From assembly GCF_052425735.1 (NCBI RefSeq), contig NC_135760.1:21762001-21826000 (forward strand): 64,000 nucleotides of DNA, read 5' to 3'. Source of the stretch: Oculina patagonica (taxonomy: Eukaryota). Made by a program: the position numbers and the translations under genes. The notes below the pieces were generated by a model, which was not told the origin of the DNA, did not search any database, and was given only the letters and a program-made list of their open reading frames with translations. Below, in pieces: positions 38,221 to 38,727 of the stretch (position 1 is the stretch's first letter; each line of letters begins with the position of its first letter).

Positions 38221-38727
38221 GGCAATGGGGTGAGTGTTCACCAGGAACAGTTAAATGGGTGAGAGTTCACCACGGAAATAGGCAATGGGGTGAGAGTTCA
38301 CCAGAAAAAAAAAAAAAAAAAAAAAAAAAAGAGCGAAGGGGTGAGAGTTCATCATAGTAAATAAAGAGCAATGGGTGAGAGGTCACCATGGAAAAGAGCA
38401 ATGGGGTGAGAGTTCGCCATAGCAATGATAAAGAGCAATGGGTGAGAGTTCACCATAAAAAAAAAAAAAAAAAAAAAATGAGCAATGGGGGTGAGAGTTC
38501 ACCATAGTAAAGATAAAGAGCACGTGAAAAAAAAAAAATTGAGCAATGGGGGTGAGAGTTCACCATAGTAATTAAAGATAAAGAGCAATGGGTGAGAGGT
38601 CACCATGAGAAAACAGTAATGGAGTGAGAGTTCACCATAAAAAGAGATGCGAGTTCACTATGTACAGGCAATGGGGTAATAGTTCCCCAGGGTAACAAGA
38701 AGAGCAATGGGGTGAGAGTTCACCACA
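38221..38727 (+). repeat. Array of about 14 hairpin units gcaatgg(g)GGTGA-gagt-TCACCa with variable A-rich spacers
   Basis: Units read directly; GGTGA and TCACC are self-complementary. Confidence 0.9.

Follow-up and report, generated by a model that had tools for sequence, protein, structure and literature searches.

A family-specific array of palindromic units in the first intron of ALOG-YR retrotransposons, a putative psi-like signal on unspliced RNA

The stretch of DNA analyzed here (the window; 64,000 nucleotides of Oculina patagonica contig NC_135760.1, forward strand positions 21,762,001 to 21,826,000) contains an ALOG-YR retrotransposon with an array of palindromic units in its first intron (Table 1). 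The existence of this array and its place in intron 1, both put forward in an initial annotation, are confirmed, while the accompanying interpretation as a packaging or Gag-binding signal is partly supported. The array is a real, clade-wide feature that plausibly works like the psi region of retroviruses. We give somewhat less than an even chance to the proposal that it is a putative psi-like stem-loop signal, marking the unspliced full-length RNA as the template for copying.

The element shows the A1-ORFs-B1A2B2 layout of Ngaro and PAT, and judged from sequence it fits the ALOG-containing DIRS1-like retroposons, with a Zn ribbon, ALOG and YR, with RT and RNase H, and with a knuckle-bearing Gag. 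In Pfam searches the YR ORF matched PF04852 (E 1e-21) and PF00589 (E 6e-8), with weak zinc-ribbon matches at its N-terminus, and pol matched RVT_1 (E 8e-7) and RT_RNaseH (E 3e-5), each 0.2 bit under the cut-off; no methylase match was returned by Pfam for the ~190 aa after RNase H, where ALOG-containing DIRS1-like retroposons carry an inactive adenine methylase. The CCHC knuckle that had been ascribed to Gag was found once in the gag exon. It is invariant in all 16 Gags aligned and was matched by zf-CCHC of Pfam in 15 of the 16; its best matches in the PDB are retroviral nucleocapsid knuckles, these being weak (E 0.0003–0.003). The predicted structure of Gag is a helical bundle (pLDDT 72), and a structure search with this model listed matches of a generic helical kind only, the best with Z 9.2 and an rmsd of 3.5 across 92 residues. 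Among the structure matches listed there was no retroviral or retrotransposon capsid, an absence that excludes nothing. Because the Gag model has only generic structural matches, ‘RNA selection’ is the safer term and is preferred here to ‘packaging’.

The genome holds five full-length copies (the window copy included; 96–100% identity), three interrupted copies and some older fragments. In all four runs contigs join the empty site, position 37384 to 44232, so the insertion is absent from these runs; some of the element-bearing runs are labelled coral metagenome. The A repeat contains AATAAA (at 37435 and 44016), and therefore the 5′ copy must be ignored, while transcripts may terminate at the 3′ copy, ahead of B2. 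Like that of the window element, the B/A junctions of sister families appear palindromic by eye, around a common CTAT. Sulfotransferase genes (PF17784), at least five in number and each with a single ORF, form the cluster into which the element is inserted. One of them is flanked by long inverted-repeat arms (45910–46148 and 48790–49052), and upstream of the element, at 34254–36340, there are nested inverted repeats. These arms and nested repeats are likely the ends of DNA transposons or MITEs.

Table 1. Features of the retrotransposon, its surroundings and two related elements (positions in the window unless a locus is named)
Feature	Position	Strand	Basis or remark
ALOG-YR retrotransposon, 6848 bp, split direct repeats A1-ORFs-B1A2B2	37385..44232	+	repeats, empty-site contigs, copies
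A1 repeat	37385..37473	+	99% identical to 43966-44054
Leader coding exon, ATG 37517, 83 codons, Ala/Gln/Val-rich, phase-0 donor	37517..37765	+	donor used in X1 joint
Intron 1, 1055 nt, GT..AG	37766..38820	+	X1 contig
Palindromic-unit array, 14 units, core GGTGA-GAGT-TCACC, A-rich linkers	38221..38727	+	sequence and folding
gag exon (179 aa) with a helical domain, a stretch rich in Arg/Gly and a single CCHC knuckle	38821..39360	+	acceptor 1, splice in RNA-like data
Second conserved structured non-coding element, between gag and pol	39705..39785	+	retained in ORF-less derivatives
pol ORF: RT, RNase H, C-terminal part without assigned domain	39852..42113	+	phase-0 acceptor at start, splice inferred
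Zn ribbon-ALOG-tyrosine recombinase ORF	42346..43704	+	phase-0 acceptor at start, first Met residue 62, splice inferred
B1 repeat	43907..43965	+	matches 44173-44231
Palindromic B1/A2 junction, candidate recombinase site	43947..43980	.	hairpin -22.3 kcal/mol, z -5.5
A2 repeat	43966..44054	+	repeat comparison
B2 repeat	44173..44231	+	repeat comparison
Sulfotransferase ORFs (PF17784)	32124-32843, 47612-48337, 49900-50625, 52274-53002, 62654-63433		
Purine-only tract of family F19, intron 1	L078:4143-4450		
Short F8 derivative	L082:2090-3500; L080:9118-9474		

The X1 contig joins 37765 to 38821 and skips the intervening 1055 nt; this joint is seen in one contig, with 28 letters on its short side, and X1 was taken as RNA on a guess for that run. 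The array was thereby placed between the donor (GT at 37766) and the first acceptor (AG at 38819–38820), as had been predicted. Read through into intron 1, the leader exon stops after 46 more codons. In the window it is in frame with gag, and the pol and YR ORFs start at polypyrimidine-AG sites of the same phase. The same organization was found in 12 families, where the leader exon is of phase 0 in all 11 families in which it was called and a phase-0 polypyrimidine-AG acceptor opens 34 of the 36 gag, pol and YR ORFs (ranking best among the phases in 31, tied in 2 and second in 1). The gag exon of one family has no Met, and the first Met of YR lies at residues 142–392 in several families. Unspliced RNA meets a stop 7–85 codons beyond the donor (11/11 families). 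No leader joints to pol and YR were seen in four runs, three of them judged DNA-like from flat cover and an empty site at equal depth, and the splices to pol and YR therefore stand as predictions. Since one phase-0 leader exon could serve the gag, pol and YR acceptors, we infer that all three proteins come only from RNAs lacking intron 1, and must therefore act in trans. With the leader exon predicted to be joined to gag, pol or YR by splicing, only the full-length RNA would retain the array.

No intron-less copies were found in 13 families: all 42 leader ends continue into the intron, 41 of them reading GT directly, and a genome-wide pattern search found no adjacent pair among 11 leader ends and 7 gag starts. 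Read depth in X1 drops after about 39850, so that the gag mRNA may not extend to the 3′ repeats; an end of this kind could alone explain the absence of intron-less copies. Copying of a spliced marker occurs readily in DIRS-1 (PMC7192593).

The array had been described as about 14 hairpin units, and 14 were indeed found (38229–38724, spaced 23–61 nt), with cores starting at 38229, 38258, 38289, 38340, 38374, 38405, 38441, 38490, 38551, 38591, 38623, 38646, 38675 and 38711, separated by A-rich linkers that include poly-A runs. Twelve units fit GGTGAGAGTTCACC with at most two mismatches, the chance expectation in the window being 0.28. A perfect 5-bp stem is present in nine units (loops GAGT in 6, GAGG in 2 and GTGT in 1); of the remaining units two have a G-U pair and three an imperfect stem. 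The variant ggggtaatagttcccc, which was said to keep the outer pairing, instead folds in a slipped register with an 8-nt loop and is therefore not compensatory. As to the hairpins themselves, the claim stood for isolated units, two of which were folded and gave a 5-bp tetraloop hairpin at −6.3 kcal/mol (z −2.1 and −2.8). It did not hold in the same way for the whole 521-nt sense RNA, in which unit-to-unit pairing competes with the local hairpins; the mean stem probability is 0.76 at a span of 40 and 0.19 at unlimited span. Folding of the minus strand or of DNA favours local hairpins as well as or better than that of sense RNA. A search against Rfam returned two matches, far below the gathering score and none on the array.

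All nine copies of the element that span the region carry the array, as was expected of other full-length copies; eight have 11–14 units, while the ninth array is split by an insertion inside it. Exact matches to the core numbered 65 in 529 Mb (control 3), 63 of them in element copies and the other two at single, lone sites, which rules out an independent minisatellite. Analogous arrays at the same position had been predicted in sister families. In this genome, 17 of the 18 families with a readable 5′ part have an array of their own, and among 12 representative elements all 10 arrays called by TRF lie in intron 1; the remaining two arrays fell below the TRF filter and were placed in intron 1 by direct reading. 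The spacers between gag and pol, between pol and YR and at the 3′ end hold no array in any of the 12 elements. Unit sequence differs by family, with unit lengths of 25–141 bp and unrelated sequences, and unit number varies among copies (11–14 in F1, the family of the window; 5–9, 6–10 and 14–21 in others). In the eighteenth family, F19, of which there is a single copy (L078), the place of the array in intron 1 is taken by a low-complexity tract made up of purines only. Loci without a usable 5′ part (L046, L072, L074, L079, L081, L084, L086–L088, L125, L130, L144) were left out of the array counts.

Among 80 metagenome loci, 14 had a gag match, and arrays were present upstream of gag in L114, L117, L124, L126, L135, L145, L160, L186, L187 and L189. 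The arrays from other samples in L117, L126, L145, L186 and L187 are related to those of this genome. A tree of RT fragments was unresolved.

Arrays are also retained in derivatives that have lost coding capacity, namely L055–L060, which lack ORFs (about 2.7–3.0 kb, some interrupted), and L051–L053, which lack YR. The former are a non-coding, non-autonomous family with a 91-bp array, and the latter a 6-kb chimera with two arrays and two copies of the structured element known from between gag and pol. A short non-coding derivative of F8 consists mostly of an alternating two-hairpin array and terminal repeats, and an F3 copy (L032:8492–9138) has its B-A block duplicated at the 3′ end. The structured element between gag and pol is a candidate second cis signal. 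It comprises a long stem with an inner hairpin, includes several G-U pairs, was seen in L051, L055–L060, L032 and L031, showed a double change in 7 of 26 pairs among five sequences, and had no match in Rfam.

The dyad symmetry of the units was examined by comparing the best Watson-Crick palindrome per unit with shuffles. The median z was 1.16 in 17 arrays and −0.24 in 22 control repeats (p 0.0006); the excess was retained when L078:4143–4388, which lies in intron 1 of F19 and hence is no valid control repeat, was dropped from the controls (p 0.0004), when four further arrays were added, three of them without a palindrome (p 0.0025), and when the data were collapsed to the 8 clades of the YR tree (p 0.0025), these and the other p values being optimistic because the cores were first picked by eye and the families are related. 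A comparison with non-array segments of the intron was set aside, since such segments are independent of one another and those of an array are not. Two arrays from other samples, L135 (z −0.5) and L160 (z −0.9), showed no palindrome excess. Dyad symmetry is a clade-level trait.

Comparison of related cores, which were chosen by eye, showed that 8 of 9 double changes in five comparisons stay Watson-Crick. Thus F6, F8a and F8b have a common CG-TGTGT-CG with an adjoining pair that is G-C, T-A or C-G, and T-A is replaced by C-G between the F1 and F11 cores. The array of F9 alternates two stems around one loop, CGG. The F1 stem is kept in L117 and L126 with other loops, so that loops of 4, 5 and 6 nt occur on the same stem. 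Within the window family, the compensatory changes that would have been expected of the hairpins were not observed in 38 or in 104 units, and in 23 distinct units from this lineage covariation did not exceed that of shuffles (40/500). Units with double changes within arrays numbered 8, against 6.1 by permutation, and only F11 was significant. Compensation appears only between related cores and not inside F1.

The molecule on which this symmetry acts was approached through strand-specific features. On the sense strand, loops are richer than linkers in G+U in 13 of 17 arrays (p 0.001) and in G likewise in 13 of 17 (p 0.008). A signature of the RNA strand was not clear from changes making G-U as against A-C (26/79 vs 16/81 in stems, 46/74 vs 55/106 in flanks), and the distinct states of these two kinds in the window family were 4 and 4. 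The hairpin energy was better than that of controls for the minus strand (p 0.0014), whereas for sense RNA it was not significantly so (p 0.13). We only lean toward RNA as the molecule concerned.

The psi-like signal could work as follows. Intron 1 is removed from gag RNA, so that the array would be present only on the full-length transcript; the leader exon would splice to pol and YR too, and all proteins would act in trans. With proteins from spliced RNA a cis preference cannot work, and therefore a signal on unspliced RNA, or choice of the 3′ end, is needed. Gag, predicted to come only from spliced RNA, would pick the array-bearing RNA as template, and the many weak hairpins of 4–8 bp with G/U-rich loops could provide multivalent sites for its single CCHC knuckle. 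As in psi, the array does follow the major donor and is confined to unspliced RNA, and further acceptors lie downstream. A bolder and more doubtful proposal is that each ALOG-YR family has its own putative, modular psi-like hairpin code which is read by its single-knuckle Gag.

Other functions have to be weighed against this signal. The hairpins might act on the RNA through host proteins, slowing splicing or permitting export and so keeping some transcripts full-length. We consider this unlikely, although it is compatible with a psi-like signal and both may hold together. The same position in intron 1, the same structural evidence and the UG-rich loops are in its favour, as are the donor-like units of the window family and L126: in F1, TGG/GTGAGA scores 5.2 against 3.5 for the true donor on a rough consensus-based scale. 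Precedents are the RSV NRS, which harbours a decoy 5′ splice site (PMC3082916), and the DIRS-1 intron near the 5′ end, which is incompletely spliced (PMC7192593). However, the cores vary by family, where action through a host factor would lead one to expect a single fixed motif, and donor-like sites showed no clade-wide excess when 20 arrays were compared with the minus strand (p 0.41) or with controls (p 0.13), so that decoy-donor arrays were rejected as a rule of the clade. About equally unlikely in our view is action as double-stranded DNA, with the palindromes bound by host proteins, either dimeric transcription factors or insulator proteins. The array does have the layout of a gypsy-type insulator, with clustered cores and AT-rich spacers in the 5′ region, its about 12–14 cores and A/T-rich spacers near the 5′ end resembling the 12 Su(Hw) sites of gypsy (PMC2374998). 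The symmetry is Watson-Crick without a G-U bias, and the cores are more conserved (0.95 and 0.93) than the flanks (0.79), a comparison biased by the finding of units through their cores. A fixed half-site does not explain two stems alternating around one loop in single arrays; the spacer between the same arms varies from 4 to 6 nt, and the G/U bias of the loops is strand-specific. The nuclear-receptor DR1 motif, RGKTCA-n-RGKTCA, fits F1 and one L013 variant, but this reading was discarded because in L126 the second half-site is lost although the stem is retained.

Palindromes can be perfected by template switching in the absence of selection. The array might be a neutral by-product, in which RT slippage or template switching at hairpins expands and perfects them and only intron 1 tolerates the expansion. 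This appears somewhat less probable still than the host-protein and DNA readings. The variation of unit number among copies and the wide range of unit lengths with unrelated sequences would be expected of such a process; it also agrees with the lack of overall compensation within arrays and with the exceptions (the purine tract of F19, and L135 and L160 without palindrome excess). It does not account for the other non-coding spacers being free of arrays in 12 of 12 elements, for the deleted derivatives that lose all ORFs yet keep arrays, or for the bias in loop composition. Least probable, in our estimation very much so, is that the hairpins form in single-stranded cDNA or serve as sites for the ALOG recombinase. 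DIRS-1 passes through a single-stranded antisense cDNA (PMC7192593), and minus-strand and DNA folds favour local hairpins, but loops on the minus strand would be C/A-rich. As for the recombinase, the initial annotation had offered DNA binding by the ALOG-YR protein as its alternative, and this found no support. Compared with their own terminal repeats, the cores of 15 elements gave no match better than 3–8 mismatches in 12–18 nt, and the B/A junction, itself a strong palindrome, is the obvious target. Likeness to the termini was hence dropped as an argument for the array as an ALOG-YR target.

If the psi-like signal is real, it would be the first signal for RNA selection in a tyrosine-recombinase retrotransposon. 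Family-specific signals would let about 17 coexisting families tell their own RNA from that of a neighbour, and the ORF-less derivatives would copy the array signal to be carried along. The array bears on how tyrosine-recombinase retrotransposons choose their template RNA. The DIRS-1 mechanism paper (PMC7192593) does not contain the word ‘packaging’, and our search of mainly openly accessible literature found no report of an intronic hairpin array or of three-acceptor splicing in YR elements. The array offers a short, defined candidate signal, and its natural variants from about 17 families allow cognate and non-cognate pairs to be compared.

Among known systems, the algal TOC1 and kangaroo elements have tandem repeats of about 76 and 89 bp in the 5′ part of a split-direct-repeat element; we know of no intron position, hairpin or function for these repeats. 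If they are indeed so arranged, arrays in YR elements have precedent. The ALOG-containing DIRS1-like retroposons (PMC3537659) have in common with the present element a knuckle Gag, RT-RNase H, Zn ribbon-ALOG-YR, direct repeats and occurrence in cnidarians. Iyer and Aravind (2012; PMC3537659) inferred every animal copy to be inactive, whereas several copies here have uninterrupted ORFs at 96–100% identity, which suggests that animal ALOG-YR elements can be intact and recently mobile. The word ‘intron’ is absent from the main text of that paper, and the portion consulted describes no array. With Ngaro and PAT (PMC4157794, PMC8547959) the element shares the A1-ORFs-B1A2B2 split direct repeats and the YR; the consulted parts of these papers describe neither an intronic array nor a leader exon shared by three acceptors. 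A methylase domain separates PAT from Ngaro (PMC4157794).

The Su(Hw) insulator of gypsy (PMC2374998) likewise has some 12 short cores, separated by AT-rich spacers, in a retroelement's 5′ part. Its consensus is not palindromic, it works as DNA and it binds one host protein, in contrast to the family-specific palindromes found here. The psi regions of HIV-1 and MoMuLV (PMC7599994) share with the array the position downstream of a single major donor, and the restriction to unspliced RNA; the exposed G of its hairpins or linkers, its CCHC partner and its many weak sites have putative counterparts here. GGAG and UCUG are sites bound by retroviral nucleocapsid, and psi of HIV-1 relies on residues immediately beyond the donor (PMC7599994). 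Unlike psi, the array consists of 5–25 tandem repeats whose sequence turns over by family, and spliced RNA is the predicted source of Gag here; among the matches listed for this Gag there was no capsid fold. A psi-like array would represent an independent arrival at the retroviral logic of a donor followed by psi.
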